Shown: in pieces, positions 14,632 to 51,568 of the stretch
Layout of the letters: every line of letters begins with the position of its first letter
How positions within the stretch are numbered: the stretch's first letter is position 1
Assembly: GCA_023251835.1 (NCBI GenBank)
Contig: JAHEXZ010000017.1
Location: 2,270-66,269 of the forward strand
DNA length: 64,000 bases
Direction of reading: 5' to 3'
From: Bacteroidota bacterium
GTDB lineage: Bacteria; Bacteroidota; Bacteroidia; 2-12-FULL-35-15
Translations under genes and position numbers: made by a program
Notes under the pieces: model-generated
Seen by the model: the letters and a program-made list of their open reading frames with translations, nothing else
Database searches by the model: none
What the model was told of the DNA's origin: nothing

Positions 14632-14651
14632 TAAGAACCCAAGAAAAAATC

Positions 14652-28000: not shown

Positions 28001-31000
28001 AAGAAGCATCATCCAAAAGATTAACAGTAGCAGTAACATTGATTGGGGTTCCGGAACAGCCATTTGCTGAAGGGGTAATAGTATATACAGCCGTACCCGG
28101 AATAGTTCCGGTAGTTGTTATTGTTTGAACAATATTTCCTCCTGAACCAGGTGATGCTCCTGTAACATCCGTTTCCACAACAGTCCAGGCATAAGTAGTT
28201 CCCAATACAGTACTCGACAATGCAATTGATGATGTTGCTCCGGAACAGAATGTTTGCGCTGGAGGCGTAGCTGTAATATCCGGTAAAGGATTAACAGTAA
28301 TGCTTACAGTTATTGGCGTACCAGAACAAGTTCCGGAGGCAGGAGTTACAGTATAAACTACAGTACCTACAGTTGATCCGGTTGCTATTAACGTATGAGC
28401 AATAGTATCACCGCTACCGTTGGATGCTCCGGAAGCTCCATTTTGGCTGACTGTCCATGAATAGGTTGTTCCTGCTATATTGCTTGTTAAAAGTATAGTA
28501 ACAGAATCTCCGGAGCAAATCGTTTTATTTGAAGGTAAGGCTGTTGCAACGAGGGTTGGTTTCACAGTAACAGGAACTGAAATTGGAGAGCCGGAACATC
28601 CCCCGGCCACCGGATTAATAATATATAACGCTGTTCCTGGTACTGTTGCCGATAAAGTTTGAGAAATTGATGTACCACTACCAGGTGTTGCACCAGTCAC
28701 ATTATTCTGACTAACTGTCCATGAAAATATTGTACCTGAAACATTGCTGGACAGAGCAATGCTGGTGCTATTACCAGAGCAGATAGTCTGCACATTTGGA
28801 GTTGCAGTAATAACAGGTCTGGGATTTACTGTTACAGTAACTGTTGCAGAATTTCCCGGACAACCGCCTGCTGTTGGAGTTATCGTATATACAGCAGTTC
28901 CAGGAAGCGAATCCGTAGTTGTTAATGACTGTACAATATTTTGTCCTGTACCGGCAATTGCCCCAGCCACGCCATTTTGAGCAACTGTCCAGGAATAAGT
29001 AGTTCCGGAAATATTGCTGGATAGAGCAATTGATGTAGCATCACCAGAACAAATTGTTTGAGCAGAAGGATTAATAGTTACAACAGGTCTTGGCGTTACA
29101 GTTATAACTACAGTAATTGGCGCTCCTGAACATCCGTTAGCGAAGGGTGTAATGGTGTATGTAACCGTACCCGGAGTTGAGCCAAAGGTTGCTGATAAAA
29201 TTTGTGATATTACAGAACCATTACCAGGGGCTGCACCGGAGGCACCACTCTGTGCAGCAGTCCAAGAAAAGGTAGTTCCTGTAACATTACTAGTTAACAC
29301 TATTGAAGTTGAATCACCGGAACAAATTGTTTGTGCTGTCGGTGTGGCAGTTGCAACAGCGGCAGGATTTACAGTTATTGTAACCGAGACAGGAGTACCT
29401 GAACACCCGGCAGCAACAGGGGTTATAGTATAAACAACAGTTCCGGCAAGAGTATCTGTAGCTGTCAATGGTTCTGAAATAAGTTGGCCTGAGCCTGAAT
29501 TTGCACCTGTCACTCCTGTTTGAGTTGCAGTCCAATTAAAATTTGTTCCTGAAACAGTGCTCGTAAGAACTACTAAAGGTGAATTTCCGGAACAAATAAT
29601 TTGTGCTGATGGAACTGCAGTTGCTGAAGGAATTGGATTAACAGTAACTGTTATTGTTATTGGTAACCCCGTACATCCACCAGCATAGGGCGTAATAATA
29701 TATACCGCAGTACCAGGAGAGTTGCTGGTGGTAGCTAATACTTGATCTATTGAAGTTCCGTTTCCATCAGAACCACCGGAAACTCCATTTTGAACAACTG
29801 TCCAGGTATAGATTGTTCCAGGCATTGTGCTTGTTAAATTAAACGATGTGGTATCACCAGAGCATAATGATTGTGTTAAAGCGTTTGCTGTTACTGTAGG
29901 AGCAGAGTCAATTGTAACAGTAAATGAAGCCAGCTCTGCCGCACATGTACCGCCAGGTGGAATTGTATTTGTGACTGTGTAAGTTCCTGGCTGGCTTTGT
30001 GATAGGTCAATTTCACCAGTATTCACGTGAACAAATGCCATACCGGAAGGGGAAGCAGTAAAAATACCGGCACTGGCTCCAACACCAAAAACAGGAACAG
30101 GGTTGGTTCCTTGCTGACAATAAGAGGTAGCAGGATAACTAAATACCGCAGAAGGAGCAATGCTTATAGTCATGGTCATGGAATTAGTTACCGGGCATTG
30201 ACCATTTGTAGTATATGATAATGTATAAGAACCTAAAGCGCTGGTGGAATTGGTAATAGTACCAGTTGTTGGATTGAGCGTCAAACCGGCAGGTGTTGAC
30301 GAAAATACCCCTCCAGGCAAACCAGTAATAGTTGGTGTAGGATTAGGTGCCGTCTGACAATAAGTACCTGATGTATAAGCATAGGTGGCATCATCAGAAG
30401 GCTTTACAGTAACGGTAACATTAATTGGCGTTCCATTACATCCACTTGCTAAAGGGGTGATTGTATATACAGCAGTTCCTGAAGTATGATTTGTGCTTGT
30501 ATTTGTTAATACTTGGGAAATAGTATTTCCTCCATTTGCAATTGCTCCTGAAACATTTGTTTGCAATACATACCAGGAAAAAGTAGTTCCGGCCACATTG
30601 CTTGATAATACAATAGCAGTGGTATCCTCAGAACAAATATTGGGTGACGGAGGAGTAGCTGTGACAACAGGCCGCGGATTTACAGTAACTGTATCAGAAA
30701 CAGGAGTACCCGGGCATGAGTTAAAAGTGGGCGTAACAGTATAAACTACGCTACCAGGAGTTGTGCCGGAAGCAGTTAAAGTTTGAGCAATTGTATTTCC
30801 ACTACTGGCAAAAGCACCTGCAGCACCGATTTGATTGATTGCCCAAATAAAAGTGGTACCAGGAATGTTACTAACCAAAGATATTAAAGTAGTATCACCA
30901 GAACAAATAGTTAAAGGATTAGGGACAGGAGTAACCACAGGTCGTGGTTTCACAGTTATTGTTACAGATATAGGTGTGCCGGAACATCCACCGGCAGCAT

Positions 31001-34000
31001 TAGGAGTAATGGTGTATGCAGCAGTTCCATCTATTATTCCCGTAGCGCTTATTGTATCGGTTATACTGTAGCCGGAACCGGGATTTGCACCAGATACCCC
31101 GGAAGGAACAACAGACCATGTAAAAGTAGTACCTATAACATTACTTGTTAATGCTATCGAAGTTACTCCACCCGAACAAAATGTTTGCGATACGGGTGTT
31201 GCAGTAGCAACCGGAACCGGATAAACGGTAACCGTATCATTTACAGGAGTTCCGGTACAACCAGCGGCTGTAGGTGTTATAGTATATATTGCTGTTCCGC
31301 TTGTAGTACCAGTTGTTGACAATGTTTGATAAATATTAGAACCATTGCTGTTAGACCCACCCGTTACTCCGGATTCTGCAACTGTCCAGGCATAAGTTGT
31401 ACCAGGCACATTGCTGGTTAAGGCTATAGAAGTAGTTCCAAAAGAACACAATGATTCTGACGGAGGAGTGGCTGTTACAACTGGACGTGGGTTTACAGTA
31501 ACTGTGGCAACAATAGATGTTCCTGAACAACCGTATACAGCAGGAGTAATCGTATAAACAACTATTCCAGGAACTGTATTTGTTGCGGTTAAAGTTTGTG
31601 TAATAGAAGAACCATTACCATCAGAAGCTCCGGAAACATTTGTTTGGTTGAATGTCCAGGCAAAAGCAGTTCCCGAAACATCACTTGTTAAATTTATAGA
31701 GGTTGTATCTCCTGAACATATTGTTGGAGCTGCAGGAGTTGCTGTAGCAATAGGTACCGGATTTACATATACACTATCAACTAAAGTGGTTCCACTACAG
31801 CCGTTTGCTGAGGGGGTAATAGTATAAGCAATTGATCCGGGTGCCGGGCTAGTTGTTGTTAATGTTTGTGCAATTGTTAAACCAGAACCAGCTGATCCAC
31901 CAGACACATTTGTATCGGCTATAGTCCATGTGAAAAGAACACCTGCTACGTTACTTGTTAATGTTATATTTGCCGTAGAACCGGAACATATTGTTTGAAC
32001 AGTTGGAGTAGCCGTTATAGAAGGTATTGGGTTTACTGTTACAGTAACAGTTATCGGTTGACCGGAACAACCACTTGGAGCCGTAGGTATAATGGTGTAG
32101 ATAACATTACCAGTTACATTTCCAGTGGTGGATAACGTTTGTGCAATTGAAGTTCCATTTCCATTTGATGCTCCGGATACACCCGTTGGATTTACAGTCC
32201 AGACAAAAGTAGTAGCGGGTATTGAACTTGTTAAATTAATTCCAGTTGTACTTCCGGAACATAAAGTCTGTGAAGCTGGTGTTGCGGTGGCAACTGGTGC
32301 TGTATTAATAACAATTGATACCGAATCAACATCTCCAGGGCAAGCTCCGGGAGCAATTGTATTTTTAACTGTGTATGTACCAGGAGTGCTTAAAGTTAAA
32401 TCAATTACACCTGTTGCAGGATTTACAAATACCAGGCCTGATGGAGTTGCAGAAAAAATTCCCGCACTTGCACCCACAGGAAAAACAGGTGCCCTATTTG
32501 TATCATACTGGCAAACCGGAACAGGAGTATAGCCAAAAGCCGCATCAGGAAGCGTTACAATTGTAACGTTCACGGTACTTGTAGCAGGGCAAGGGCCGTT
32601 AGTTGTATATGTAATAGCATAAGTACCAACAGTGCTTGCTGACAGGTTAATCTTTCCGGAATTCACATTTACAAATACCAATCCGGCAGGAGCTGCAGTG
32701 AACGTACCCCCAGCCAAACCTGTAATTGTAGGTGTAGGATTAGGCTCTGTCTGACAATAGGTTGATGAAGCATAATTAAAAGCAGGGTTATCCTGTTTAT
32801 TCACAGTAACAACAACATTTTCAGGAGCTCCCACACATCCATTTGTGGAAGATGGGGTTATTGAATAAATAACGCTTCCGACTGTGGGACCGGTAAGAGT
32901 TAACGTTTGTGCAATGTTAGAACCAGAACCCGCTGATGCTCCCGTAACCCCCGTTTGGTTAATTGTCCAGGTGAATGTTGTACCACTGATATTGCTTGAT
33001 AATGCAATGGCTGTAGAGGAGCCGGAACAAATTGATTGAGCATTAGGAGTTGCTATAACAGTAGGCCTGGGATTAACTGTTATAGTAACCGTTATTGGCT
33101 GACCGGGGCAATTGCCATAAGTAGGGACAACGGTATACGTTACAGTTCCTGCTGTTATGCCTGTAGCTGATAAAATCTGAGTAATTGCAGTTCCATTGCC
33201 GGCTGTAGCGCCCGATGCACCTGTCTGATTAATCGTCCAGGCGAAAGTGGTTCCAGGTATATTGCTGGTTAATGCAATTGAAGTTGCATCACCGGAACAA
33301 ATTGTTTGAACAGAGGGAGTAGCAGTTGCAACAGGAACTCTGTCTACCTGGATATTGACTATTATAGGAGAACCTATACAACCAGAAGCAGTGGGGGTAA
33401 CTGTATATACAGCAACACCTGATGTACTTCCGGTTGTTGAAAGAGTTTCAGTAATAGAAGTACCGGAAGAAGCAGAGCCCCCGGTTACATTGCTTTGGCT
33501 TATTGTCCAGGAAAAGGAAGCTCCCACAACATTGCTTGTTAGTGCAATTCCTGTAATATTTCCGGAGCATATTGTTTGCGAAGGAGGTACTGCACTGGCG
33601 GTTGGTATTGGGTTTACTGTCACCGGAACAGTAATAGGAACGCCCACACATCCTGTTCCGCTAACTGTTGGAGTAACTGTATAAACAGCCGTTCCTATAG
33701 AAGAACCTGTAGTAGATAGTGGTTGAACAATACTGGAGCCATTGCCCGGAGAACCTCCTGTTACACCCGTTTGGGCAACAGTCCATGCAAAAGTAGTACC
33801 TGGTAAGTTACTTGAAAGTGAGATAGAGGTTGTACTTCCTGAACACAAACTTTGTGATGAAGGTGTAGCTGTAGCAGTTGGTTTAGGATTAACAGTAATT
33901 GTTACCTGGATAGAGCTGCCAATACAGGAACCCACAGAAGGAGTGATGGTGTATGTGACGGTTCCGGATGAAGTACCTGTTGCAGATAGACTTTGCGCAA

Positions 34001-36002
34001 TTGTAGAACCACTTCCCGAAGTAGCTCCTGTAGCACCAACCTGATTAGCAGTCCAGTTAAAAATAGTTCCTGCAACATTGCTTGTTAATATAATTGATGT
34101 TGCATCCCCGGAGCAGACCGTTTGTGTAGCTGGCATAGCAGTGGCAACCGGCAGAGGATTTACGGTAACAGTAGCAGTGATTGGTGTTCCCGTACAATTT
34201 ACTGTAGAAGGAGTAATTGTATACACGGCAGTTCCAGACGTACTTCCTGTAGTTGCAAGGGTTTGTGAAATCGAAGAACCAGAACCCGGTGCACCTCCTG
34301 TCACACCACTTTGATTTATTGACCAGTTAAAGGAGGCTGTTGATACATTGCTTGACAAGGCTATTGATGTTATACCCCCCGAACAGATTATCTGAGTGGA
34401 CGGTGTAGCCGTTGCATTTGGAACAGGGTTAACAACAATTGTTACAGTTATTGGACTACCCACACAACCGCCTGCTGTTGGAGTAACAGTGTACACAGCA
34501 GTTCCTGTAGTACTACCTGTGGTAGACAATGTCTGTGATATGGTAGAACCATTTCCAGGGGAAGCACCTGATACTCCGGATTGTGAAACTGTCCAGCTAT
34601 AGGTAGTACCACCGATAGAACTGCTTAATGCAACAGAAGTAGTATTTCCGGAACATATTGATTGAGTGGAAGGAGAAGCTGTTGCAACAGGAGCAGAATT
34701 AACATTAACTGTAACTTGAGCACAACCAGTTGTATTGCAGGTTCCGGATGCTAAAACATAATAAGTAGTTGAGGAGGAAGGAGATACCGTAATTGAGTTA
34801 CCTGTTCCAATGAATGTTCCAGCACAAGCTCCGGAATACCAGAGGTAAGAAGCTCCAATACCTAAGGAGCCACCATTTTGTGTAAGGGTAACGGAACCAC
34901 CGCAACTGGGGTTAGGACTTGCAGTAATAGAGCTTGGAGCAGTTGATGAAGCACCGGCAATTACAGTAACTGAGGCACATGCCGTAGTATTACAAGCACC
35001 TTCAGCTCTTACAAAATAAGCAGTAGTACCACTTGGCGTGACGCTAATGGAAGATCCGGAACCAACATAAGTTCCTCCACAACTTCCGGAATACCATTTC
35101 CAAGAAGCACCTGTTCCTAATGAACCACCGGAAACGCTTAATACAGTGGAACCACCACCGCAAACGGGGTTAGGGCTGGCACTGGCAGAAGAAGGAGCAG
35201 TAGATGATGAATTAACGGTAACTGTAACTGAAGCACAACCGGTAGTATTACAATTTCCTTCAGCTCTTACATAGTATGTTGTAGTTGAGCCAGGTGATAC
35301 GTTGATAGAGGAGCCACTTCCAACATAAGAACCACCACAGCCTCCTGTGTACCATTTCCACGATGCACCGGTACCAAGTGAGCCACCATTTACATTTAAT
35401 GTTGTAGAGCCACCACAGGTTGTAATCGGGCTAGCGCTTGCTGAAGAAGGGGCTGCAGACTGAACGCATACAGGAGCATAAGTGAATGTAATTGTAGCAC
35501 TAGATACACATACTGCCTGGTAGCTGTCACCACCGCTAACAGTTATTTGTAAACAATTGCTTCCACCATAACTATAGCCAGAAATAGGGCCAGACAAACA
35601 GTATGTCTGTGGCCAGCAATTCCCACACCAACAGTCACCTATAGGGGGCAAACATTGAATAGTTGTTCCATCTATTGATGTGCATAAAGTTCCGTAACCG
35701 CAATCAGCTTTATAAACTGTTACACATGTACTGGTAATTACGTTTCCCGGGGGTATTGGATCTGTAAAACATTTAATGCCATTGTTCCAATCTCCACTTC
35801 CAGACCACGGTGGATTACAGGCATAAGAAGCACCACCACAAATAGTACACCAACCAGTTGACCAATATACTGTTGTTGAGACGGATTGGGCATTTCCTTT
35901 ATGCGACAATAAAAAAGCAAATACAAAAAAAACACATAAAAATACGTTCTTACGCAGAGTCTGGTAAAAAAGGCTGATTGGTCTATTAGTAGTTATACCC
36001 AT
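22074..36002 (-). CDS. giant cell-surface repeat protein (about 4640 aa) with T9SS type B C-terminal domain
   Basis: One uninterrupted ORF. The track starts it at TTG 36035, but ATG 36002 (MGITTNRPI...) is more likely. It has a signal, a 14-Cys head, 3 WKWY units, 29 A units, 8 B modules, an SprB-like repeat, a PKD domain, and the CTD FTPNGDGENDIF...FNRWGEK...DGTYYYIIKA. Confidence 0.9.
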   Translation of the reverse strand: MGITTNRPISLFYQTLRKNVFLCVFFVFAFLLSHKGNAQSVSTTVYWSTGWCTICGGASYACNPPWSGSGDWNNGIKCFTDPIPPGNVITSTCVTVYKADCGYGTLCTSIDGTTIQCLPPIGDCWCGNCWPQTYCLSGPISGYSYGGSNCLQITVSGGDSYQAVCVSSATITFTYAPVCVQSAAPSSASASPITTCGGSTTLNVNGGSLGTGASWKWYTGGCGGSYVGSGSSINVSPGSTTTYYVRAEGNCNTTGCASVTVTVNSSSTAPSSASASPNPVCGGGSTVLSVSGGSLGTGASWKWYSGSCGGTYVGSGSSISVTPSGTTAYFVRAEGACNTTACASVTVIAGASSTAPSSITASPNPSCGGSVTLTQNGGSLGIGASYLWYSGACAGTFIGTGNSITVSPSSSTTYYVLASGTCNTTGCAQVTVNVNSAPVATASPSTQSICSGNTTSVALSSSIGGTTYSWTVSQSGVSGASPGNGSTISQTLSTTGSTTGTAVYTVTPTAGGCVGSPITVTIVVNPVPNATATPSTQIICSGGITSIALSSNVSTASFNWSINQSGVTGGAPGSGSSISQTLATTGSTSGTAVYTITPSTVNCTGTPITATVTVNPLPVATAMPATQTVCSGDATSIILTSNVAGTIFNWTANQVGATGATSGSGSTIAQSLSATGTSSGTVTYTITPSVGSCIGSSIQVTITVNPKPTATATPSSQSLCSGSTTSISLSSNLPGTTFAWTVAQTGVTGGSPGNGSSIVQPLSTTGSSIGTAVYTVTPTVSGTGCVGVPITVPVTVNPIPTASAVPPSQTICSGNITGIALTSNVVGASFSWTISQSNVTGGSASSGTSITETLSTTGSTSGVAVYTVTPTASGCIGSPIIVNIQVDRVPVATATPSVQTICSGDATSIALTSNIPGTTFAWTINQTGASGATAGNGTAITQILSATGITAGTVTYTVVPTYGNCPGQPITVTITVNPRPTVIATPNAQSICSGSSTAIALSSNISGTTFTWTINQTGVTGASAGSGSNIAQTLTLTGPTVGSVIYSITPSSTNGCVGAPENVVVTVNKQDNPAFNYASSTYCQTEPNPTPTITGLAGGTFTAAPAGLVFVNVNSGKINLSASTVGTYAITYTTNGPCPATSTVNVTIVTLPDAAFGYTPVPVCQYDTNRAPVFPVGASAGIFSATPSGLVFVNPATGVIDLTLSTPGTYTVKNTIAPGACPGDVDSVSIVINTAPVATATPASQTLCSGSTTGINLTSSIPATTFVWTVNPTGVSGASNGNGTSIAQTLSTTGNVTGNVIYTIIPTAPSGCSGQPITVTVTVNPIPSITATPTVQTICSGSTANITLTSNVAGVLFTWTIADTNVSGGSAGSGLTIAQTLTTTSPAPGSIAYTITPSANGCSGTTLVDSVYVNPVPIATATPAAPTICSGDTTSINLTSDVSGTAFAWTFNQTNVSGASDGNGSSITQTLTATNTVPGIVVYTITPAVYGCSGTSIVATVTVNPRPVVTATPPSESLCSFGTTSIALTSNVPGTTYAWTVAESGVTGGSNSNGSNIYQTLSTTGTTSGTAIYTITPTAAGCTGTPVNDTVTVYPVPVATATPVSQTFCSGGVTSIALTSNVIGTTFTWSVVPSGVSGANPGSGYSITDTISATGIIDGTAAYTITPNAAGGCSGTPISVTITVKPRPVVTPVPNPLTICSGDTTLISLVSNIPGTTFIWAINQIGAAGAFASSGNTIAQTLTASGTTPGSVVYTVTPTFNSCPGTPVSDTVTVNPRPVVTATPPSPNICSEDTTAIVLSSNVAGTTFSWYVLQTNVSGAIANGGNTISQVLTNTSTNHTSGTAVYTITPLASGCNGTPINVTVTVKPSDDATYAYTSGTYCQTAPNPTPTITGLPGGVFSSTPAGLTLNPTTGTITNSTSALGSYTLSYTTNGQCPVTNSMTMTISIAPSAVFSYPATSYCQQGTNPVPVFGVGASAGIFTASPSGMAFVHVNTGEIDLSQSQPGTYTVTNTIPPGGTCAAELASFTVTIDSAPTVTANALTQSLCSGDTTSFNLTSTMPGTIYTWTVVQNGVSGGSDGNGTSIDQVLATTSNSPGTAVYIITPYAGGCTGLPITITVTVNPIPSATAVPSAQIICSGNSPLVVLTSTVSGTNFNWTATQTGVTGANSGSGQLISEPLTATDTLAGTVVYTITPVAAGCSGTPVSVTITVNPAAVATATPTAQTICSGDSTSIVLTSNVTGTTFSWTAAQSGASGAAPGNGSVISQILSATFGSTPGTVTYTITPFANGCSGAPITVVITVTPRPVVTINPSAQTICSGDATSIALSSNISGTTYSWTVAQNGVAGAIAGTGQNIVQSLTTTDSLPGTAVYTITPTAGGCPGNSATVTVTVNPRPVITATPNVQTICSGNSTSIALSSNVSGTIFSWTVSQNNVTGATPGSGTSISQTLSATVPGTALYIINPVAGGCSGSPISVPVTVKPTLVATALPSNKTICSGDSVTILLTSNIAGTTYSWTVSQNGASGASNGSGDTIAHTLIATGSTVGTVVYTVTPASGTCSGTPITVSITVNPLPDITATPPAQTFCSGATSSIALSSTVLGTTYAWTVVETDVTGASPGSGGNIVQTITTTGTIPGTAVYTITPSANGCSGTPINVTATVNLLDDASFAYTSATYCQDGADPTPTITGLPGGTFASTTPPFSLMVNPSTGAIDLSASALGTYTLSYTTNGTCPNTASINMTIANTNPSASFSYLGSPFCQYGTNPTPIYGAGATPGIYSATPAGLEFVMVNTGEIDLMNSAPGTYTITNTIPASGSCGGAVATYSITIDAAPVVTATPPLATICAGGSTGIVLTSSLPATTYAWTVNATNVSGTSSGTGDTIAQTLYTTGLSSGTAIYTIIATSGNCPGQPIDVPITVNPCPIGTSIPSTQAICSGNSTSISLSSNIIGTTFSWTATATGVTGASNGIGDAIAQTLTTTGNSVGTVTYLVSLSANGCDGIPIPVTVTVNPLPTVTASPVSQTICTGDSAFIVLTSNVPGTTYAWIASQLGVTGASDGNGDTIMHILSASGSVSGTVTYTVTPTAQGGCPGLPTTATVTVNPAPTLTATPTTQVICSGESSNVVLYSNINSSTFAWTVTQTDVTGATNDSGSIINQTIIATDSIQGKAVYTVTATDTTTGCPGTSIDVIILVNPSPTIKATPSSQIICTGSTTGITLSSDVAGTSFSWIVNQIGVTGATPGSGTSIAQTLAVSGTTSGTAEYIITPVGGTCLGDTIHVLITVNLMDSTQFSYSSPVFCQTGVDPMAVVTGLPGGTFSASSGLVLLDSLTGLLDLSASQVGLHTVQYKTNGSCSDSSVVYVTIIPAPGAGFTYPDTSFCQSGTNPLPVLDSGAVAGVFSATPSGLVFADSTTGEINLAASTIGTYVITNTLVPNGGCGSLIDSTTITIVPLIAMATPSSQSICSGNSTSIALSSSLSGTSYSWTVTQTGTTGASAGSDSVINQTLTLQGALPGSATYIITPSTGACTGDTISVNITVNPPPIAIAIPSSQTICSGGTALINFASNIPGSIYSWTVSQSGVSGASAAIDTVISQTLSVTGIDTGMVIYTIIPSSNGCPGAPITALVSVTPSGDASFVYSSATYCQSGTNQTPSITGMTGGVFTFSPGGLSIDSLTGTINPSVSTLGVYTVTYTVSNGSCVSSSSITMTIGNTNPAAIYSYSSPSYCQNGANPLPIFPLGASAGIFSASSSGLVFVHENTGEIDLAASTPGTYTITNYIPASGSCLSATWTSTVTVTLADDASFAYTSATYCTSGDNPTPSITGLPGGLFTSIPTGLVIDSLTGTIDLSASNTGVYTVSYTTDGNCPATSSIVMTITDTTPSTNFNYTGSPFCLNGINPIPVYDTGASAGIYSATPPGLVFAHVNTGEIDLAASSPGTYIVTNYIPVSGSCLSSSSTDTIIINSSDDASFNYSSATYCQSGTNPTPSVTGVGGGSFSSSPSGLVINDSTGTITLSTSQLGTYTVTYTTNSICQNSNSIVVTITDTIPVSDFSYPASPFCQNGNNPSPTYSSGGSAGIFSSAPSGLVFVNVNTGEINLALSEPGTYTITNTIPASGNCFSDSATSTVTITPSDDASFVYTSATYCQSGSDPTPIITGISGGVFSAVPLGLAIDSATGTIDLSASNIGVYTLYYTVNGTCTGSGSITMTITDTTPLAGFTYSSSSFCQGGNNPYVIFAPGASAGLFSSTPSGLVFEHVNTGEIDISASAPGTYIVTNNIPASGGCLAASASTIIIINGVPVITATPASQTICTGDTTSVNLSSSMAGTIYSWTVNQTGVSGATAGTGSTISQILTTSGINQGIATYIVTSNVNGCEGNPITVPVTVIPLPTVGTITVTIVPANCADSAGAILGLAVPQGQSPLTFVWQNILGDTVSLVGPELSNAVPGSYSLTITDTNGCSSIAGPYVINSTSGVISAFSVDPVTGQSPLTINLTNGSTNATHYLWQFGMTDTSTATNPIYVVIPPGEFQICLIAYNSFSCTDTTCTTIEVEQNSSFVVPNVFTPNGDGENDIFMVKGVSLRTLDAEIFNRWGEKLFEWHTTNGGWDGRTASGGIASDGTYYYIIKAKGKDGKEYFEKGSFSLIREGK
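23140..25125 (-). repeat. array of four consecutive B modules (B5-B8)
   Basis: Modules start at GDASFVYSSATYCQ, DDASFAYTSATYCT, DDASFNYSSATYCQ and DDASFVYTSATYCQ. Spacing is about 166 aa. Confidence 0.8.
27512..34694 (-). repeat. three tandem ~2.4-kb super-repeats, each seven A units plus one B module
   Basis: B modules begin at aa ~1082, ~1881 and ~2675, a period of about 795-800 aa. Seven Q-x-(I/L/F/V)-C-S-G-initiated A units sit between them. Confidence 0.8.
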
Positions 36003-36036: not shown

Positions 36037-36096
36037 TATACTTCGACTAAATGACCCCGATAGCTATCGGGGCTGCAAACTCATTCGCTCAGTATA
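36037..36096 (+). repeat. dispersed hairpin repeat, module-1 copy with GC palindrome in the loop
   Basis: tatacttcgactaaatga-ccccgatagctatcgggg-ctgcaaactcattcgctcagtata. It lies between the small partner gene and the giant gene. Confidence 0.8.
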
Positions 36097-36108: not shown

Positions 36109-36555
36109 TTACTTTTTTACCTCAAGTACTTCAAACCGATAAATAGCATATAATCTGTAGTCAGATAATTTATCAAGATAATCTTTAAGTTTAATAACAC
36201 ATTCAATGTATTCATCAGATGAACAATTGCCTTTGATTTCTTTATTGGGGTCAATGTTTAAAAACTTTTTTGCCGTGGAATTGTCTTTCTTAATCCATGT
36301 ATTTCCCTGGGTAAGAATTGCATCATACCATTTAATAGTTACAGGGTATTTGTTGTTGTTTGTAAATTTAACAATAATAACTTCTTCGCCATCACTGCAT
36401 AAACTTTTTTGAAAAGAGGCATCTATACCATTGACACTGCTATGGCCAGCAACATCAAGTTTAACAGGTTCCCAAGCATTACTATTCTGTGCGAAAGCCG
36501 GGTAACAGGATGAAAGAAAGAATAAAAAGAAAAGGGAATGTAATTTTTTTTCCAT
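36109..36555 (-). CDS. small secreted (possibly lipo-)protein of unknown family, partner 2 (paralog of 21388..21828)
   Basis: ATG at 36555 (MEKKLHSLFFLFFLSSCYPAFAQ, with LSSC as a possible lipobox). It sits directly upstream of the 4.6-kaa gene and is a paralog of 21388..21828. Confidence 0.75.
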   Translation of the reverse strand: MEKKLHSLFFLFFLSSCYPAFAQNSNAWEPVKLDVAGHSSVNGIDASFQKSLCSDGEEVIIVKFTNNNKYPVTIKWYDAILTQGNTWIKKDNSTAKKFLNIDPNKEIKGNCSSDEYIECVIKLKDYLDKLSDYRLYAIYRFEVLEVKK

Positions 36556-36841: not shown

Positions 36842-39800
36842 TTACTTTGCACGAATCAATATAAAAGTGCCTTTTTCAAAATATTCCTTTCCATCTATCC
36901 CTGAAGCTTTAATTATATAATAATATGATCCATCAGAAGCATTAATACCGGCAGAAGTACGGCCACTCCATCCACCATTAACAGTATGCCATTCAAATAT
37001 TTTTTCACCCCAACGGTTGTATATTTCTGCATCCATTTTTACAAGTCCAACACCTTGCACAGTAAATATATCATTGATGTTATCATCATTTGGAGTAAAT
37101 ACATTCGGAATAACAAATACAGAATTAAGGAAAACATCAACTGTGTCGCAAATACTATCTATACATCCGGTTGGGCTAATTGCTGTCAGGCAAACAGTAG
37201 ACTGTCCGAGCGGTAAATAGGTATATACAGGGTTAATCAGATTTGATGTATCGCCAGTACCGAAATCCCAAAGATAGTTTGATGCACCAATACTTGTATT
37301 CGTAAAATTAATTGTAAACGGTGTTTGACCAATTAATGTATCGGCAGTATATTGTGCAATAACGGGAGGTGTGGCAATTATAGAGAATGAAGCGGCAGTA
37401 ATGGTACAACCATTTGTATCAGTAACTGTTAATGTGTATATTCCAGGAGGAACACTATCCAAATCAACATTATTTTCTACAACAGTTCCTAATGTATCTG
37501 TCCAAACATATTGAAAAGGAGGTTGTCCTGTTATCATTGTTATACCAGAAATACCACCTGTAGGATTCCCACAGTTGGCAAGTGTTGTAACTGCGGATGA
37601 TATATTGGCAACAGGCAAAAAGTTAACATATACAATAACGTCAATGGGTGCCCCTGCACAACCGCCAGCAGTTGAAGTAACTGTATATACTGCTGTTCCA
37701 GGAATATTTCCCGTAAGGTTTAGAGTTTGTGTAATAGAAGGCCCTGTGCCTGCAGAAGCTCCAGATACACCCGTTTCAACAACTGTCCAGAAACAGTTTG
37801 TCCCCCCCATGGAACTACTTAGCGTAATAGAAGTGGATCCTCCTATACATATAGTTTGAGGAGAAGGCGTGGCAGTAATAACAGGAGCGGGATTAATAAT
37901 AACTACAGCTGTTCCGGTTGCTGAATCACAAGAGCCACTTGCAGGAATGGTATTAATTACGTTATAGGTACCGGCAGCACTGGCTGTTAAATCAATTTCA
38001 CCGGTATTTACATTTACAAATACCAAACCGGCAGGGGTGGCAGAAAAAATTCCGGCACTTGAACCCGGAACAAAAGCAGGTAAAGGGTTTGGTGCACCCT
38101 GACAATAAGGGTCATCAATATAGCTGAAAAATGCAGAAGGTGTAGTATCTGCTATTGTCATCATTATAGAACTTGAGTTAGGACAAGCACCATTTGTTGT
38201 ATATGTGAGGGTGTATGTTCCCAGGGCACTTGTAAATAAATTGATTGTACCAGTTGAGGGGTTAATTGACAGCCCAACAGGAGAGGAAGAAAAGGTTCCC
38301 CCAGGCAGGCCGGTTATTACAGGTGTGGGGTTCGTTCCGGAAGTACAATATGTTGCAGAAGAGTAGGTAAAAGAGGCATCATCGCTCGCAGATACTGTGA
38401 TGGTAGTTGTAGCGCTTACCGCATTACAAGAACCACTTACAGGTATAGTATTGGTGACGGTATAAGTACCAGGAGTACTGGCAGCCAAATCAATTTCTCC
38501 GGTATTAACATGCACAAACACTAAACCTGAAGGAGTGACGGAGAAAATACCTGCACTTGCACCAGTAGCAAAAACAGGAAAAACACTACCAACCTGGCAA
38601 AAAGAGGCAGTTGAATAAGTGAAAGTAGCAGCAGGGTTAGCATTAATGATAGTCATTGTAATGGAACTGGCATTGGGACAGCTTCCATTTGTTGTGTATG
38701 AGAGCGTATAGGTTCCCAAATTACTGACAGATAAATTAATAGTTCCTGTAGAAGGATTAATTGATAACCCGGGAGGAATTGCTGAAAAAACACCACCGCT
38801 TAAACCAGTAATTGAAGGTGTTGGATTTATTCCGGAAGTACAATATGTTGCAGAAGAGTAGACAAAGGATGCGTCATCCGGTGCATTTATGGTAACTGTA
38901 TCTATAGCACTTATAGCATTGCAGGTACCACTTTGAGGAATTGTATTTGTAACAATATAGGTACCAGGAGCACTTGCAGAAAGGTCTACCTCACCAGTAT
39001 TTACATGCGCAAATATCAGCCCAACAGGAGTGGCTGAAAAAATACCTGCACTTGCACCAAAGGCAAAAGTTGGGAAAGGACTTGTTGTATTTTGACAGAA
39101 AGGTGAACCAGCATAGCTGAAAGTTGCAGAAGGGTTTGCATCAATGATTGTCATTGTTATTGAGCTGGCGTTTGGACAAACACCATTTGTTGTGTATGAC
39201 AATGTATATATACCTAACGCACTTGCAGACAAATTGATTTCGCCTGTTGAAGGGTTGATTGATAATCCGTTAGGAATTGCAGAAAATGTGCCACCAGATA
39301 AACCGGTAATTGCAGGTGTTGGGTTATTTCCAGACTGGCAATAGGTTGCAGATGTATATACAAAAGAGGCATCATCAGCAGAAATTATAATAACAGTTGT
39401 TGATGCACTTATTGCATTACATGTTCCACTGGAAGGGATAGAATTGGTAACTGTATAGGTACCAGGAGCAGAGGAAGATAAATCTATTTCACCTGTATTC
39501 AAATTGGAAAACACTAACCCCACAGGAATTGCAGAAAAAATACCTGCACTTGCACCGGGAGCGTAAACAGGAAGGAGATTACTTCCATTTTGACAAAAGG
39601 CAGGAGAAGTATAACTAAACATAGCTGATGGTGTGGTATTAGTAATTGTCATCGTTATAGAACTTATACCCGGACATGAGCCGCTTGTTGTATAAGTAAG
39701 CGTATAGCTACCTAAAGCACTATTCGCAAGATCAATAGTACCTGTGGAAGGATTTAGTGCCAATCCTATGGGAGTGGAAGAAAAAATTCCTCCAGGCACT

Positions 39801-42172
39801 CCTGTAATAACAGGGGTAGGATTACTACCAGATATACAATAAGTTGCAGAAGAATATACAAAAGAGGCATCATCATTTGGCGTAATGGTAATTGTTGTTG
39901 TTGCTGTTGCAGTTGCACAGGTACCACTTGCCGGAATAGTATTGGTAACGGTATATGTTCCGGGAGCGCTTGCAGAAAGATCAATCTGACCGGTATTAAC
40001 ATGAACGAATGTTAAACCAGCGGGTGTTGCCGAAAATATACCAGCACTTGAACCTGGAGCAAAAAGTGGAAAAGGGTCATTTCCATTTTGACAAAACGGA
40101 GCACCTATGTAGCTGAAGTTTGCAGCTGGGTTGGCGTTAGTAATAGTCATTGTTATAGAACTGGTATCAGGACATGCACCGTTTGTAGTATAAGAAAGCG
40201 TGTAAGCGCCCACTCCACTTGCTGATAAATTAATCGTACCAGTTAGCGAATCTAATGATAAGCCAACAGGTGTTGAAGAAAATATACCTCCCGGTAAACC
40301 TGTAATTGTTGGAGTTTGATTTGGACCGGATATACAATAGGTTGCAGAAGGATATATAAAAGAGGCGTTGTCAGAAGACGTTATAATAATGGTAGTTGAA
40401 GCTGTATCAGCAAGGCAGGTGCCACTGACAGGGATTATATTAGTAACAATATAAGTACCGGGAGTGCTTGCAGCTAAATCTATTTCTCCTGTATTTACAT
40501 GGACAAATACTAAACCAGCAGGTACAGATGAAAATATTCCGGCACTGGCACCAGCATTGAATACAGGAAGAGGGTTATTAGCATTCTGACAATATAAAGC
40601 ATTAGCATAGGCGAAGCTGGCAGAAGGATTCGTATTTGTAATGGTAACTGTTATAGAACTTGTGCTTTGACAAAGCCCATTTGTAGTATATGAAAGTGTA
40701 TATATACCAATTGTACTTGAAGCTAAGTTAATTACGCCAGTAGTTGAATTTACAGCTAAACCGACAGGAATGGCAGAGAATGTTCCTCCCGTAAAACCTG
40801 TAATTGTAGGTGTTGGATCAGTTCCTGACTGGCAAAAAGTTGCGGAAGGATAAGTAAATGAAGCATCATCGGCAGGATTTACAGTTGTTGTAGCATTAAC
40901 GGGCACTCCTGAACATCCATTAGCAGAAGGAGTAATTGAATAAATTGCAGCACCGGTACTGCTTCCCACAGTAGTTAACACTTGTGATAGCATAGCAGTA
41001 TCTGAACCTAATGTTGCACCGGTTATTCCCGACTGAAAAACAGTCCAATAAAAGGTTGTACCAATAACGTTGCTGGTCAAAGAAATAGCAGTAGGTTCCC
41101 CGGAACAAATTGTTTGTGTTACAGGATTTGCAGTTGCGACAGGGATAGGGTTTACAATAACAACAGCCGTTACAGTATCCCCCATACAAAGCCCCGTTGT
41201 AGGAATGATTGTATAAATTGCAGTATCCGGAATAGCTCCTGTTGCAGTTAAAAGTTGAGTAATAACAGAATCACTTGCAGAAAAGGCCCCTAAAGAATTT
41301 GTTTGAGTAACAGTCCACGTAAAGGTTGTTCCTGCCAGAGTACTTGTCAGAACAATTGATGTGCTGTCACCGGAACAAATTGGCTGCACTGCAGGTGTAG
41401 CAGTAGCAACAGGTAAAGGATTCACTGTTACTATAACAATATTACTGGCGGTATCTGCCACACCTCCACAACTGGATGCCATACGCCTATACCATCTTGT
41501 TGCAATGAGGCCGGCAGGAGGGTCATAAAACAGGCCTGTTTCTCCGGTAATATCATTCCATGTAGTACCATTATCATCACTATATTGCCATTGATAATTT
41601 GCATAAGTACTACCAGCAAGTATATTTTGCAGGGTATCAGGGTTGTCTCCTGCGCAAATAGTATCATCACCAGATATAGTTCCAGGGTCTATGGATTGAT
41701 AATACCAGTAATAACTCCAATAAACTGAGTAAGTACCGCTACCGCAAACCTTTTGGTGTGTATTATAATTCCACTGACATGGCGGGTTTGAATTTATTGT
41801 CACACTACCAACATTGGTATATCCTCCACAAACATTATCATCTGCACCACAGAGAAAACTATCAGATTCCCAGCCATCCATGGATAAAGAGAGGGAAGAA
41901 CCAGCCAACAGAACCTGAGGAGCTACCCAACTGTAGTTTGCAATACCGGACCATCCACAAACTTCGTCTTCATCCACATTCCAGCTATATGTTCCGTTGT
42001 TAGTAGTAACATTTGTTCTCCAGCGGGGATCCGGATCTCCCCAGCAATCAGAGCATCCGGGTTCGGAATAATATAAGTCGTCTCCATCAATTTCAACAAC
42101 AACATTCTGCGAATACACATTCACAAAAAGGCAAAGTAAAAAAGAGAGGTTCAGTAAATATATTTTTTTCAT
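36842..42172 (-). CDS. giant cell-surface repeat protein (1776 aa) with T9SS type B C-terminal domain
   Basis: Signal MKKIYLLNLSFLLCLFVNVYSQ, followed by a different Cys/Trp-rich head. Then come 2 A units, 6 B modules, 1 A unit, an SprB-like repeat, a PKD domain, and the CTD FTPNDDNINDIF...YNRWGEK...DGSYYYIIKA. Confidence 0.9.
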   Translation of the reverse strand: MKKIYLLNLSFLLCLFVNVYSQNVVVEIDGDDLYYSEPGCSDCWGDPDPRWRTNVTTNNGTYSWNVDEDEVCGWSGIANYSWVAPQVLLAGSSLSLSMDGWESDSFLCGADDNVCGGYTNVGSVTINSNPPCQWNYNTHQKVCGSGTYSVYWSYYWYYQSIDPGTISGDDTICAGDNPDTLQNILAGSTYANYQWQYSDDNGTTWNDITGETGLFYDPPAGLIATRWYRRMASSCGGVADTASNIVIVTVNPLPVATATPAVQPICSGDSTSIVLTSTLAGTTFTWTVTQTNSLGAFSASDSVITQLLTATGAIPDTAIYTIIPTTGLCMGDTVTAVVIVNPIPVATANPVTQTICSGEPTAISLTSNVIGTTFYWTVFQSGITGATLGSDTAMLSQVLTTVGSSTGAAIYSITPSANGCSGVPVNATTTVNPADDASFTYPSATFCQSGTDPTPTITGFTGGTFSAIPVGLAVNSTTGVINLASSTIGIYTLSYTTNGLCQSTSSITVTITNTNPSASFAYANALYCQNANNPLPVFNAGASAGIFSSVPAGLVFVHVNTGEIDLAASTPGTYIVTNIIPVSGTCLADTASTTIIITSSDNASFIYPSATYCISGPNQTPTITGLPGGIFSSTPVGLSLDSLTGTINLSASGVGAYTLSYTTNGACPDTSSITMTITNANPAANFSYIGAPFCQNGNDPFPLFAPGSSAGIFSATPAGLTFVHVNTGQIDLSASAPGTYTVTNTIPASGTCATATATTTITITPNDDASFVYSSATYCISGSNPTPVITGVPGGIFSSTPIGLALNPSTGTIDLANSALGSYTLTYTTSGSCPGISSITMTITNTTPSAMFSYTSPAFCQNGSNLLPVYAPGASAGIFSAIPVGLVFSNLNTGEIDLSSSAPGTYTVTNSIPSSGTCNAISASTTVIIISADDASFVYTSATYCQSGNNPTPAITGLSGGTFSAIPNGLSINPSTGEINLSASALGIYTLSYTTNGVCPNASSITMTIIDANPSATFSYAGSPFCQNTTSPFPTFAFGASAGIFSATPVGLIFAHVNTGEVDLSASAPGTYIVTNTIPQSGTCNAISAIDTVTINAPDDASFVYSSATYCTSGINPTPSITGLSGGVFSAIPPGLSINPSTGTINLSVSNLGTYTLSYTTNGSCPNASSITMTIINANPAATFTYSTASFCQVGSVFPVFATGASAGIFSVTPSGLVFVHVNTGEIDLAASTPGTYTVTNTIPVSGSCNAVSATTTITVSASDDASFTYSSATYCTSGTNPTPVITGLPGGTFSSSPVGLSINPSTGTINLFTSALGTYTLTYTTNGACPNSSSIMMTIADTTPSAFFSYIDDPYCQGAPNPLPAFVPGSSAGIFSATPAGLVFVNVNTGEIDLTASAAGTYNVINTIPASGSCDSATGTAVVIINPAPVITATPSPQTICIGGSTSITLSSSMGGTNCFWTVVETGVSGASAGTGPSITQTLNLTGNIPGTAVYTVTSTAGGCAGAPIDVIVYVNFLPVANISSAVTTLANCGNPTGGISGITMITGQPPFQYVWTDTLGTVVENNVDLDSVPPGIYTLTVTDTNGCTITAASFSIIATPPVIAQYTADTLIGQTPFTINFTNTSIGASNYLWDFGTGDTSNLINPVYTYLPLGQSTVCLTAISPTGCIDSICDTVDVFLNSVFVIPNVFTPNDDNINDIFTVQGVGLVKMDAEIYNRWGEKIFEWHTVNGGWSGRTSAGINASDGSYYYIIKASGIDGKEYFEKGTFILIRAK
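37905..40871 (-). repeat. array of six consecutive ~166-aa B modules
   Basis: Module starts are DDASFTYPSATFCQ, DNASFIYPSATYCI, DDASFVYSSATYCI, DDASFVYTSATYCQ, DDASFVYSSATYCT and DDASFTYSSATYCT. Confidence 0.8.
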
Positions 42173-42200: not shown

Positions 42201-42322
42201 TATACTTCGACTGAATGAGTTTGCGATAGTTCGACAAACTAACTAATCATTACAAACTCATTCGCTCAGTATAACTGAATCTAAACATCTTTGCCTTTGC
42301 AAATCTGCTAAGATTCAGTATA
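42201..42322 (+). repeat. dispersed double-hairpin repeat, full copy (module 1 + module 2)
   Basis: Module 1 is tatacttcgactgaatgagtttgc...acaaactcattcgctcagtata. Module 2 is actgaatctaaacatctttgcctttgcaaatctgctaagattcagtata. Confidence 0.85.
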
Positions 42323-43271
42323 AATCTGTTTCAGTGTTGTGCACTTTTGTTTTCGGCAGTTTCTCTCTTACTTCATCGATCTCTTTTTGAGAAATATTAG
42401 TTTTCCAACAGCTTAAATAAGATAATTGTTTAAGACGAGTAATCTCTTCAGGAAAAGTTGCCAATGGATTATAGTAAATGCCCAAATAATCAAGATTCGC
42501 CATTTCTTTAATAGCAGGAGAAATGGAATTTATTTTATTATAACCCAAGTTGATGTAAGTAATATTTTTAAGTGAATACAATTCTTCCGGAATATTAGAA
42601 ATTGCATTGTTGGTCAAACAAAGTGCATCAAGTTGTTTAAATTGAGCTATTGAAACAGGTATTTCAGTAAGGTTTGCATTTGTAATTTTTAATTTTCTTA
42701 AACCTGTTAAGTTCCATAATTCTGCAGGGATAGCACATTTAGAGGAGATTTCACCAATTGTAATTTCTTTCAATGATTTCATATTTCCTAATCCTGCACT
42801 TATATTTTCAAGAGGGTTGTTTTGTATCTGTAATACTTCGAGTTGAGTGCATGAAGTTATTTCATGGCCAAGGGAAACGAGTTTATTTTTATTGACATGT
42901 AATTCTTTCAGATTTTTAAATTCCTTTAATCTTAAAGGAAGTGCTGTAATATTATTTCGGGAAATATCAATTTCTTCTAAATTCGAAAAGAGAAATAATT
43001 GTTCGGGAAAGTCGGTTAACCCTGATGCGCTAAAACGTGCACTTTTATATATTTCAGGATTTTTGAGTGCTTCGGTTAAATTAGCAGGCGAAACAACGGA
43101 GCCGTATTTTGAGTCGGGCACAAACCGTGCAAGGTGAGAATATTTATCAGGATTTGATTTTTTGAGATACGATTTATCTTCAGGTTGAGCCAGTGCATTG
43201 CAACAGCTAAATAGGCTTATAGCAACAAAGGGACTATTTTTTAAAAAAAACAAGAGTAAAGCTTTCTTCAT
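42315..43271 (-). CDS. leucine-rich-repeat protein (secreted)
   Basis: Signal MKKALLLFFLKNSPFVAISLFSCCNALAQ. About 9 LRRs (LEEIDISRNNITALPLRLKEFKNLKELHVNKNKL...). Confidence 0.8.
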   Translation of the reverse strand: MKKALLLFFLKNSPFVAISLFSCCNALAQPEDKSYLKKSNPDKYSHLARFVPDSKYGSVVSPANLTEALKNPEIYKSARFSASGLTDFPEQLFLFSNLEEIDISRNNITALPLRLKEFKNLKELHVNKNKLVSLGHEITSCTQLEVLQIQNNPLENISAGLGNMKSLKEITIGEISSKCAIPAELWNLTGLRKLKITNANLTEIPVSIAQFKQLDALCLTNNAISNIPEELYSLKNITYINLGYNKINSISPAIKEMANLDYLGIYYNPLATFPEEITRLKQLSYLSCWKTNISQKEIDEVREKLPKTKVHNTETDLY

Positions 43272-49782: not shown

Positions 49783-49821
49783 AAAAATCTATTCAAAAAC
49801 AGTAAACATTACAACAAAAAT

Positions 49822-50790
49822 TTAGAAATAACGCGGTGAAACAAATGGTGGTTTTGACATACTGAAGTCATAACTTAACATTATTTCGTGGGTGCTGCCT
49901 AATTGTCTTGCCGGTTTATTAATGCCAAAATCATAGGCATATCCTATTTTAAATTTATTATTGATATAGAACTGGGTATAAGCCACAATTCCGTATTTTA
50001 TGCGAGCAGAAATTCCCAGCCATAAGCGTTGTTGAAGTAAGAAACTAAGATTAATATCAGCGGTTGGTGGACTGTTCTTCACAGCTTTCAGCATAAAGGA
50101 AGGGTTGAAAATTAATTTTTCGGACAGTTCCCAGGCTTTGCCACCTGTTAAAAAGACATGGTATTCTAACCTTGAAGAATCGATCGTACTTCCTATTGGT
50201 TTTTGAAGGTGCCCCCTATCGAGGTGTGTCATACTAAGACCTGCATACGTAGTATTTGTATAATAGTAAACCCCGGCATCAGCTGTATACGTTATGACGG
50301 TTGAAGGGGCATTGAATTGATCGTTTGCCTCCTCAAAATCATGCTCTCCATAGCTATATTTATATTGATAAATACCTAATCTTAAACCCATGGACAGTTT
50401 ACCTTTTCCAAGTTTTATACGATATGCGTAAGAACCTAATATCCCATTGGTATTCTTAGGCCCTATCCTATCATTTGTAAAAGCAAAACCCAAAGCCACT
50501 TTTCTTTTGCGCATGGGACTATGTACTGTTAGAGAACCTGTTTTCGGAGCGCCATCAAAACCCCACTGATCTCGATAAAACATAGTAGTACTGATTGCTT
50601 CTTTAGCTCCTGCGTAGGCAGGGTTTATTGCCAACTGATTAAACATATACTGACTATACTGAGGGTCTTGTTGAGCAAATATGTTTATTTTTAAGGAGAA
50701 AAAAAACAATAAAGAAAAAGACAATAAAACTATCTCTTTTCTATAATTCCATTGAGGGAGGTAATTTACTTTATTATTTTTTTTTTTCAT
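49822..50790 (-). CDS. PorP/SprF-family type IX secretion system membrane protein
   Basis: The N-terminal hallmark is QQDPQYSQYMFNQLAINPAYAG. Its size and its alternating beta-strand character fit PorP/SprF. Confidence 0.9.
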   Translation of the reverse strand: MKKKNNKVNYLPQWNYRKEIVLLSFSLLFFFSLKINIFAQQDPQYSQYMFNQLAINPAYAGAKEAISTTMFYRDQWGFDGAPKTGSLTVHSPMRKRKVALGFAFTNDRIGPKNTNGILGSYAYRIKLGKGKLSMGLRLGIYQYKYSYGEHDFEEANDQFNAPSTVITYTADAGVYYYTNTTYAGLSMTHLDRGHLQKPIGSTIDSSRLEYHVFLTGGKAWELSEKLIFNPSFMLKAVKNSPPTADINLSFLLQQRLWLGISARIKYGIVAYTQFYINNKFKIGYAYDFGINKPARQLGSTHEIMLSYDFSMSKPPFVSPRYF

Positions 50791-50800
50791 TTAAATAAAC

Positions 50801-51568
50801 TTAACGGATTAATTCAACCCATCCTTTTTTTGGGTCTTTATCGTTTCCTTTTTCTCTTTCAATCAGATAAAAATAAGTAGCAGCGGGGAGTATTCTCTCT
50901 TTATTATCCGTTCCCATCCAAACTACTTCAGTGTTATCATATTTTTCACGTGACCAAACCATGTCACCCCAGCGGTTAAATATGGAAACTTTATTATTTT
51001 TATAATTAGTAATACCCGCTATTATCCATGTTTCATTAATCCCATCATGGTTAACCGTAATTACATGATATGGATCAAGTAAATCATTACACTTAATATT
51101 GTCATCTTCAGTTATCTTTATTTCGTTAGTGACAGTGATGTTATCATCTTTCACATAATATTCATAGGTTCCAGGAGGCAGATTATTAATTTTGAAAACA
51201 GTATCGTATATGCCGTTTCCCCATTTTAAATAAACAATCCCGGTAGCGCTTATCACCTTGAAATATACACTTCCATTGTTAGCACCATCACAAGGAGAAT
51301 TTGATATGACAGGCTTTACAATTAAAGGATTAAGGTCAGGCTGCTGAAAGCCCTGAGTAAGCCATTTAACTGTAGGGAAAGAAGAAGCTGACTCGGTGGT
51401 TACCACAGGTTCGCCTATTGTATAATCGATTGTGCCCCAACCAGGTATTATTCCGGAACTACCAGTAGTGCTTAACACTTGACGCATAGGCGGGTCAGTC
51501 TGCATCTGGGCAGATGCTGAATGTATTACCAGAAGTAAAAAATAAAAAAGTAATAATTTGATTTTCAT
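50801..51568 (-). CDS. small (about 255 aa) protein with T9SS type B C-terminal domain
   Basis: Signal MKIKLLLFYFLLLVIHSASAQ. An SprB-like unit reads CDGANNGSVYFKV...LPPGTYEYYV. The CTD reads ITVNHDGINETW...IFNRWGDMVW...ATYFYLI. Confidence 0.8.
   Translation of the reverse strand: MKIKLLLFYFLLLVIHSASAQMQTDPPMRQVLSTTGSSGIIPGWGTIDYTIGEPVVTTESASSFPTVKWLTQGFQQPDLNPLIVKPVISNSPCDGANNGSVYFKVISATGIVYLKWGNGIYDTVFKINNLPPGTYEYYVKDDNITVTNEIKITEDDNIKCNDLLDPYHVITVNHDGINETWIIAGITNYKNNKVSIFNRWGDMVWSREKYDNTEVVWMGTDNKERILPAATYFYLIEREKGNDKDPKKGWVELIR

Follow-up and report, generated by a model that had tools for sequence, protein, structure and literature searches.

A family of small exported proteins encoded directly upstream of head-bearing type IX secretion cargo in Bacteroidota

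The window analysed here, a stretch of 64,000 nt from a Bacteroidota bacterium (positions 2,270 to 66,269 of contig JAHEXZ010000017.1, assembly GCA_023251835.1), contains twice over a gene for a small exported protein placed immediately upstream of a giant gene that encodes type IX secretion system (T9SS) cargo. The small proteins are designated sA and sB, and the giants that follow them G2 and G1, respectively (Table 1). Both giants carry a Cys-rich head near the N-terminus. The original prediction, made from the letters of the window, had proposed an accessory factor dedicated to this head. As described below, the linkage between the small gene and head-bearing cargo is real, broader than the window and more general than first thought, extending over two types of head and over both types of T9SS C-terminal domain (CTD).

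Linkage of the small genes to head-bearing cargo

The proteins sA and sB share 34% identity across their full length (BLASTP, E=9e-31), in agreement with the one third estimated originally, and this E-value places their paralogy far beyond chance; their coordinates and strand had likewise been given correctly. The sB gene ends 19 nt before the ATG of G1 (21368), and the sA gene ends 106 nt before the G2 start at ATG 36002, or 73 nt before the alternative start TTG 36035, so that the gaps first reported hold. By their CHU_C / TIGR04131 C-terminal domains both giants qualify as type B cargo (CHU_C 60 bits and TIGR04131 42 bits for G1; CHU_C 68.5 bits for G2), and their N-termini, judged by eye, are hydrophobic and end ...FSQ or ...NAQ. 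The heads of G1 and G2, with 14-15 Cys, are 34% identical over 108 aa (E=2e-14), and a hidden Markov model (HMM) of the Cys-rich head matches both. The third giant of the window, G3, has a head unlike these, as had been stated, and serves as a contrast case: in the window the HMM of the small family matches sA and sB only, with nothing beside G3.

The same arrangement was found in relatives, all small-protein, head and partner sequences being from uncultured metagenome-assembled genomes (MAGs) or metagenomes. Among 27 distinct small genes with readable context, 23 or 24 lie 1-106 nt upstream of head-bearing T9SS cargo on the same strand, in line with the neighbourhood originally proposed. Seventeen of them stand 6-106 nt upstream of giants with the Cys-rich head; six others, together with one partial case, stand 1-65 nt upstream of cargo with a glycine-rich head. 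The sA orthologs (loci L001-L004) keep the same downstream giant, with G2 orthologs of 4643-4654 aa, and the gene for P0169, a protein about 36% identical to sA, is separated by 6 nt from a downstream gene whose 876-aa SprB/PKD/CHU_C product has the same Cys-rich head. A genome scan for related loci, which covered the sB subgroup, gave nine species-representative loci from MAGs of Bacteroidota, Bacteroidia or Bacteroidales, in which orthologs of sB at 41-60% identity lie 15-38 nt upstream of Cys-head giants, often as two small-giant cassettes in tandem.

A second clade of small proteins, about 25-30% identical to sA, is always found upstream of proteins with a glycine-rich domain (GRD) as the head (L007, L008, L009, L027, two tandem cassettes in L025, and L024, which covers the first downstream residues only). 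A metagenome scan of this GRD-linked subgroup returned two truncated loci only. The partner in L009 is a protein of 474 aa with a GRD head and a type A CTD; the other partners of this clade combine SprB repeats with a type B CTD. Over both clades, the cargo ranges from 474 to about 4650 aa, its stalk consists of SprB or PKD/Ig repeats, and its CTD is of type A or B. These data support a linkage that tracks the N-terminal head; it follows neither the type of secretion signal nor the repeats of the stalk nor protein length.

Adjacency is kept among small proteins sharing only about 25% identity, whichever of the two heads and of the two CTD types the cargo has. In a neighbour-joining tree, the small proteins linked to GRD heads separate cleanly as one clade from those linked to Cys-rich heads, and the pairwise identities of small proteins correlate with those of the adjacent heads (Mantel r=0.865, p=2e-4). 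Paralogs within one genome show similar divergence of small protein and head (e.g. 0.35 and 0.31 in the window), and therefore the cassette duplicates and diverges as a unit. In combination, the head-tracking linkage and the Mantel correlation support that part of the original prediction which tied the small gene to the head, being in keeping with a factor dedicated to it; its restriction to the 14-Cys head falls, because the second clade pairs with heads of the PF12810 type.

Spacers of 15-19 nt, as found in the sB group, are too short for a promoter and exclude a separate one unless it is located inside the small gene, and a consensus scan of the window revealed no terminator-like site; from these observations we infer that the small gene and the giant are co-transcribed. 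Upstream of the genes and between them, nothing usable came from a sigma-70 promoter scan or from looking for TAnnTTTG, the -7 motif of Bacteroidota. The perfect palindrome in the sA-G2 spacer (Table 1) could attenuate read-through. It is not conserved in relatives, in which the spacers at that junction measure only 28-39 nt.

The small-protein family and its two kinds of partner head

Both small proteins have signal-peptide-like N-termini, as had been noted from the outset, ending ...AFA/Q in sA, where the signal is type-I-like, and ...FFS/Q in sB. The type I cleavage motif A/S-Q is present in 112 of the 183 family members surveyed. Lipobox-like strings are found in 14 of the 183 at variable positions; a conserved lipoprotein identity is thereby rejected for the family, and the LSSC string that had been put forward as a lipobox of sA is not a conserved feature. 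In most members the mature region contains two Cys and no more. The conserved columns are, in sA numbering, W28, G37, C53, N66, N68, W76, G109, C111, L123 and D125, and the blocks first quoted as common to the two paralogs (W.P, KF.N.N, W.DA..T, two Cys and KLKD) turned out to be conserved throughout the family.

Scans of sA and sB against Pfam and NCBIfam gave no match, 46 diverse relatives gave no consistent match, and a search of PDB sequences with the family profile was negative as well; the initial failure to recognise a family was thus borne out. A T9SS CTD of type A (Por_Secre_tail) or type B (CHU_C) was detected in neither sA, sB nor the 46 members, even at E<=1, and by this measure the small proteins would not themselves be T9SS cargo. 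A word-index search with sA returned 16 close relatives, all of them unnamed proteins. The profile search suggested with the original prediction, run exhaustively over 1.84 billion representatives, returned a conserved family of 269 clusters (50% identity) at E<=1e-3, 99 of them at E<=1e-10, and in nearly all of these clusters the protein stands alone, with a length of 130-160 aa. The best 150 matches, all of them of <=211 aa, included no larger protein to which the small domain is fused, which is consistent with a separable partner. The sA/sB family is a real, conserved and Sec-exported family of Bacteroidota that has no curated description. One further protein from a Bacteroidota MAG (P0206, 186 aa) looks like the first ~50 residues of the small-family type joined straight to a Cys-rich head, and is probably a deletion derivative of the cassette. 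Scans of viral contigs with the small family (A1, A6) gave no match.

The AlphaFold2 model of sA, built from a 33-row alignment, is all-beta with eight strands (predicted local distance difference test score, pLDDT, 84.6, rising above 90 in the mature domain; predicted template modelling score, pTM, 0.75). Compared with the PDB by Foldseek, the model matched generic Ig-like sandwiches only (E>=1.2e-3), including DUF1425 (3o0l), transglutaminase C-terminal barrels, Ipi, Cj0090 and ApaG. The family can on this basis be confidently predicted to adopt an Ig-like beta-sandwich, a single domain of about 125 aa without a close structural relative.

No match to the Cys-rich head was obtained in Pfam, NCBIfam or PDB sequences. 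The AlphaFold2 model of the G2 head is a beta jelly-roll (pLDDT 84.4, pTM 0.82), and its Foldseek matches in the PDB (E 7e-6 to 5e-4, TM-score about 0.4-0.53) are carbohydrate-binding or TNF-like modules: BcsB CBD, CBM36, CBM35, Cry1Aa domain III, the Pgp3 C-terminal domain, the furin/Kex2 P-domain and the BC2L-C N-terminal lectin. In a viral structure library, C1q-domain and collagen-like fibre heads matched. With such a predicted binding module carried distally on an extended Ig/PKD stalk and a type B CTD as anchor, the arrangement is that of an adhesin tip. No enzymatic or toxin domain was returned when the heads were scanned against Pfam and NCBIfam. A Cys-head-like region (E 9e-17) is also present in a 158-aa fragment from a Deltaproteobacteria MAG (P0214), a protein that also has PF11617, and the Cys-rich head may not be restricted to T9SS organisms.

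The heads linked to the second clade are of another kind. The L009 head matches PF12810 (ALK_LTK_GRD) with 43.3 bits against a cut-off of 24.5, and the L008 head matches the same family; such matches are confined to partner heads of the second clade, and the Cys-rich heads of G1 and G2 give none. A GRD-head profile found no match among PDB sequences. Homology between the two kinds of head is unsupported (hhalign E=0.19 and 0.087); where they align best locally, over a shared 'PVPAGN.VT.V.V..GA' strand, the likeness is suggestive only.

What the small protein may do for its neighbour

We infer a periplasmic location for the small protein, which would bind the neighbouring head; the linkage and the co-divergence lend indirect support to the binding. 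The role we lean towards as the most economical one, with a confidence somewhat short of even, is that of a partner cognate to the N-terminal head, serving in the periplasm as either a chaperone or a cap. Encoded ahead of the giant in the two-gene cassette, the small protein would be made first and would wait in the periplasm, where it would bind the head as the N-terminus of the giant emerges from Sec. The head would emerge well before the C-terminal signal of a giant of 1700-4600 aa has been synthesised, and the small protein would during this period chaperone or cap it, preventing premature oligomerisation, ligand binding or mis-oxidation. The giant would then be exported via its C-terminal signal. 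No charge complementarity between small protein and head is evident.

Several observations weigh against such a partner role. The co-divergence is also expected from plain co-inheritance of neighbouring genes, and the loci, all from uncultured sources, were mostly found via the small protein, which introduces an ascertainment bias. Moreover, both independent contexts that were found from the head side lack a small partner. One is a 223-aa head protein encoded by crAss-like phage contigs (L010, L011 and L012; Cys-head HMM E 3.6e-30), with Crass_capsid and CrAss_Ring_3_4 genes nearby. The other is a Cys-head gene with PKD_6, Ig_7 and PKD domains and a type A CTD at a chromosomal locus disrupted by an insertion sequence (IS) (L013); the gene is split into open reading frames (ORFs) of 115 and 1254 aa and has the IS element, with a DDE transposase, upstream, and a small partner was not detected. 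As the partner is missing at both of these loci, it is not universally required for head folding. The pairing is also broken by three of the 27 small genes, which form one tight sB-like subclade: all three are found just behind a G1-type giant, L015b and L018 as orphans followed by a convergent gene, and L017b with a gap of 282 nt to the next giant, whose head is of another, unclassified kind. Finally, the two types of partner head have no homology demonstrable by hhalign, and therefore need not be bound in one and the same mode. A GRD/SprB/CHU_C protein without a small partner was also seen. The crAss-like phage may have borrowed the adhesin tip; a scan of viral contigs with the phage head (P0207) gave no match.

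The linkage, the head specificity and the co-divergence would fit equally well if the small protein were a co-secreted tip subunit or ligand, binding the folded head in the periplasm and leaving through the T9SS without a CTD of its own to form a heterodimeric, polymorphic tip. T9SS does export folded proteins (PMC10994853). The conserved residues W28, N66, N68, W76 and D78 would suit a ligand-binding surface, and the tandem, strongly diverged cassettes resemble polymorphic recognition loci. Conversely, the phage and IS-disrupted heads have no partner and orphan small genes exist, and we know of no precedent for piggy-back export through the T9SS without a CTD; a co-secreted subunit is in our view rather unlikely. 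The bolder proposal, in which the small protein hitch-hikes out on the giant to build a two-chain, highly polymorphic adhesive or recognition tip and the tandem cassettes constitute a surface-recognition locus for kin or substrate specificity, is improbable; if true, it would be the first case of a protein that hitch-hikes through the T9SS without a CTD.

Toxin-immunity arrays are likewise brought to mind by the co-divergence of cognate genes, by the polymorphic cassettes in tandem and by the orphan copies, and a Sec-exported beta-sandwich with a Cys pair could be a periplasmic immunity protein or inhibitor, neutralising a harmful activity of the head (lytic, pore-forming or self-glycan binding) in the producer. 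The weak fold likeness to the Bacillus subtilis inhibitor Ipi (3isy, E 1.4e-2) points in the same direction, but is not significant. Immunity genes are usually located downstream of the toxin gene, the partners have the architecture of adhesins with long Ig/PKD/SprB stalks, and the heads look like binding modules of the CBM, C1q or TNF type with no catalytic signature, all of which makes inhibition unlikely. Another reading assumes no direct interaction at all, the small protein having a function of its own (e.g. periplasmic binding or sensing) and being merely co-regulated or hitch-hiking. The orphan copies and the heads without a partner suit this reading, as do the unrelated small genes upstream of other giants (the leucine-rich repeat, LRR, protein before G3 and a 117-aa protein before a 1070-aa cargo), which may reflect a general operon habit. 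It is nevertheless very doubtful, given that adjacency withstands divergence to about 25% identity, two head types, both CTD types and spacers of 1-106 nt, that the tree is split by head type, and that the cassette duplicates as a unit. Least credible is a role, also named in the original prediction, in which the small protein would anchor the cargo as a lipoprotein of the outer membrane or act as an adaptor for its secretion. The LSSC string in the signal region of sA would speak for it, as would the PorP-like anchors known to be specific for type B cargo (PMC9143113); it is disfavoured by the scarcity and shifting position of lipobox-like strings against the common A/S-Q type I site, by a pairing that is independent of CTD type, and by the PorP/SprF gene already present in the window.

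Neighbouring cassettes and known systems

The remaining features of the window and the loci discussed above are collected in Table 1. Each giant of the cluster has its own upstream small gene, each of a different family. The LRR protein with a signal peptide lies directly upstream of G3, 142 nt away, and the pairing is kept in relatives, where the gap is about 15 nt. In L001 and L004 an unrelated small secreted protein (117-146 aa) is encoded directly upstream of a 1070-aa PKD/CHU_C protein, and in relatives this cassette stands between the orthologs of G3 and sA; the window lacks the whole cassette and has just a 268-nt spacer at this place. Cassettes of a small gene plus cargo appear to be gained and lost as units. 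A CHU_C protein, a PorP/SprF-family protein and a PorE-like protein head the same-strand run of T9SS cargo genes, and beyond G1 follow two genes of the opposite strand, for a type A cargo and a MORN-repeat protein.

Table 1. Coordinates of the features discussed (window positions unless a locus is named).
Feature	Coordinates	Strand	Description
sA	36109..36555	-	ATG 36555 to stop 36109, 148 aa; ORF extendable to TTG 36573
sB	21388..21828	-	146 aa, paralog of sA
Palindrome	36055..36072	-	CCCCGATAGCTATCGGGG, 18 nt, perfect; 8-bp hairpin in sA-G2 spacer, no T-tract
G1	16239..21368	-	1709 aa, T9SS type B cargo; Cys-rich head, Ig_7/PKD_5/PKD_4 repeats, CHU_C CTD
G1 Cys-rich head	20871..21311	-	14 Cys, homologous to G2 head; head HMM E 1e-69
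G2	22074..36002	-	about 4640 aa, T9SS type B cargo; signal-peptide-like N-terminus, Cys-rich head, Ig_7/PKD_5 repeats, CHU_C CTD
G2 Cys-rich head	35457..35888	-	about 144 aa, 15 Cys; predicted jelly-roll beta-sandwich
Phage head protein	L010:6001-6672, L011:6001-6672, L012:3968-4639		signal-like N-terminus, Cys-rich head, short tail
IS-disrupted Cys-head gene	L013:6770-12134		
L015b	L015:9965-10453		orphan small gene
L018	L018:1032-1484		orphan small gene
L017b	L017:9923-10366		small gene before giant with unclassified head
G3	36842..42172	-	1776 aa, T9SS type B cargo; head unlike G1/G2
LRR protein	42315..43271	-	318 aa, signal peptide
Spacer	36574-36841		268 nt
1070-aa cargo cassette	L001:6247-9824, L004:6212-9876		
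T9SS context	47137..51589	-	
Short CHU_C protein	50801..51589	-	262 aa
PorP/SprF-family protein	49822..50790	-	PF11751, 242 bits
PorE-like protein	47137..49782	-	PD40, CarboxypepD_reg and OmpA domains
Type A cargo	11941-13545	+	copper monooxygenase-like domain (Cu2_monoox_C) and Por_Secre_tail
MORN-repeat protein	14619-16217	+	

Research on the T9SS has centred on the translocon, on the signal at the C-terminus of the cargo and on proteins that act as shuttles and anchors (PorV, PorP-like), and a literature search returned no description of a cargo-specific periplasmic partner for the N-terminal end of T9SS substrates. The sole chaperone described for the translocon in PMC10994853 is the generic SkpA, and chaperones go unmentioned in a review devoted to T9SS effectors. 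A cargo-specific periplasmic partner would fill an open slot beside SkpA. What is new here is a candidate cargo-specific accessory family of at least 269 clusters, whose fold is predicted with confidence and which Pfam, NCBIfam and PDB do not contain. Its linkage, strict and deep, is to adhesin heads of two kinds, and one of these corresponds in bacteria to the glycine-rich domain of ALK/LTK; a literature search found no work on bacterial PF12810. The family suggests a hypothesis for the periplasmic handling of giant adhesins or the building of their tips, and the small gene provides a genomic marker by which adhesins with such heads could be found in Bacteroidota that have not been cultured.

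In other two-step pathways, a cargo that crosses the outer membrane in the second step may share its operon with a periplasmic partner that folds or holds this cargo specifically: examples are Lif for lipases of the type II secretion system and the PapD-type chaperones of the chaperone-usher pathway. The latter are Ig-like too, but consist of two Ig domains (about 220 aa) and act by donor-strand complementation; Lif is helical and membrane-anchored, and neither acts in the T9SS. A chaperone or cap for the head would parallel these two, or the AprI-type inhibitors, by analogy and not by homology; for Lif and PapD the only test was a Pfam scan, which gave no match. With a single domain of 125 aa and no Pfam match, the small protein does not classify as a PapD-like chaperone (PF00345/PF02753).

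The inhibitors AprI/Inh of serralysins and the Tsi proteins of the type VI secretion system are likewise small, Sec-exported and all-beta, often with one disulfide, cognate to their neighbour and polymorphic. Here, by contrast, the partners look like adhesin heads and not enzymes, the gene of the partner protein comes first, and there is no sequence match or significant fold match. The absence of a toxin or enzymatic domain in heads whose fold resembles binding modules also sets the cassette apart from toxin-immunity pairs. DUF1425/YcfL-like proteins and the C-terminal Ig-like sandwiches of transglutaminases share a topology of 7-8 strands with the small protein. The likeness to DUF1425 would be one of fold class only, and membership is not supported (3o0l, Foldseek E 1.2e-3, TM-score 0.43/0.55, 8-9% identity, no Pfam match).

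Within the T9SS itself, the PorP/SprF-like outer-membrane proteins (PF11751) are cargo-specific partners of type B CTDs (PMC9143113), and they and the small family are alike in being cargo-specific accessory genes encoded beside their own cargo gene. The small proteins do not match PF11751 and have no sequence relationship to it. PorP-like proteins, beta-barrels of about 300 aa in the outer membrane, recognise the type B CTD, and their genes usually follow that of the cargo, whereas the small family consists of soluble beta-sandwiches of 125 aa, encoded upstream, which pair with both CTD types and track the N-terminal head.

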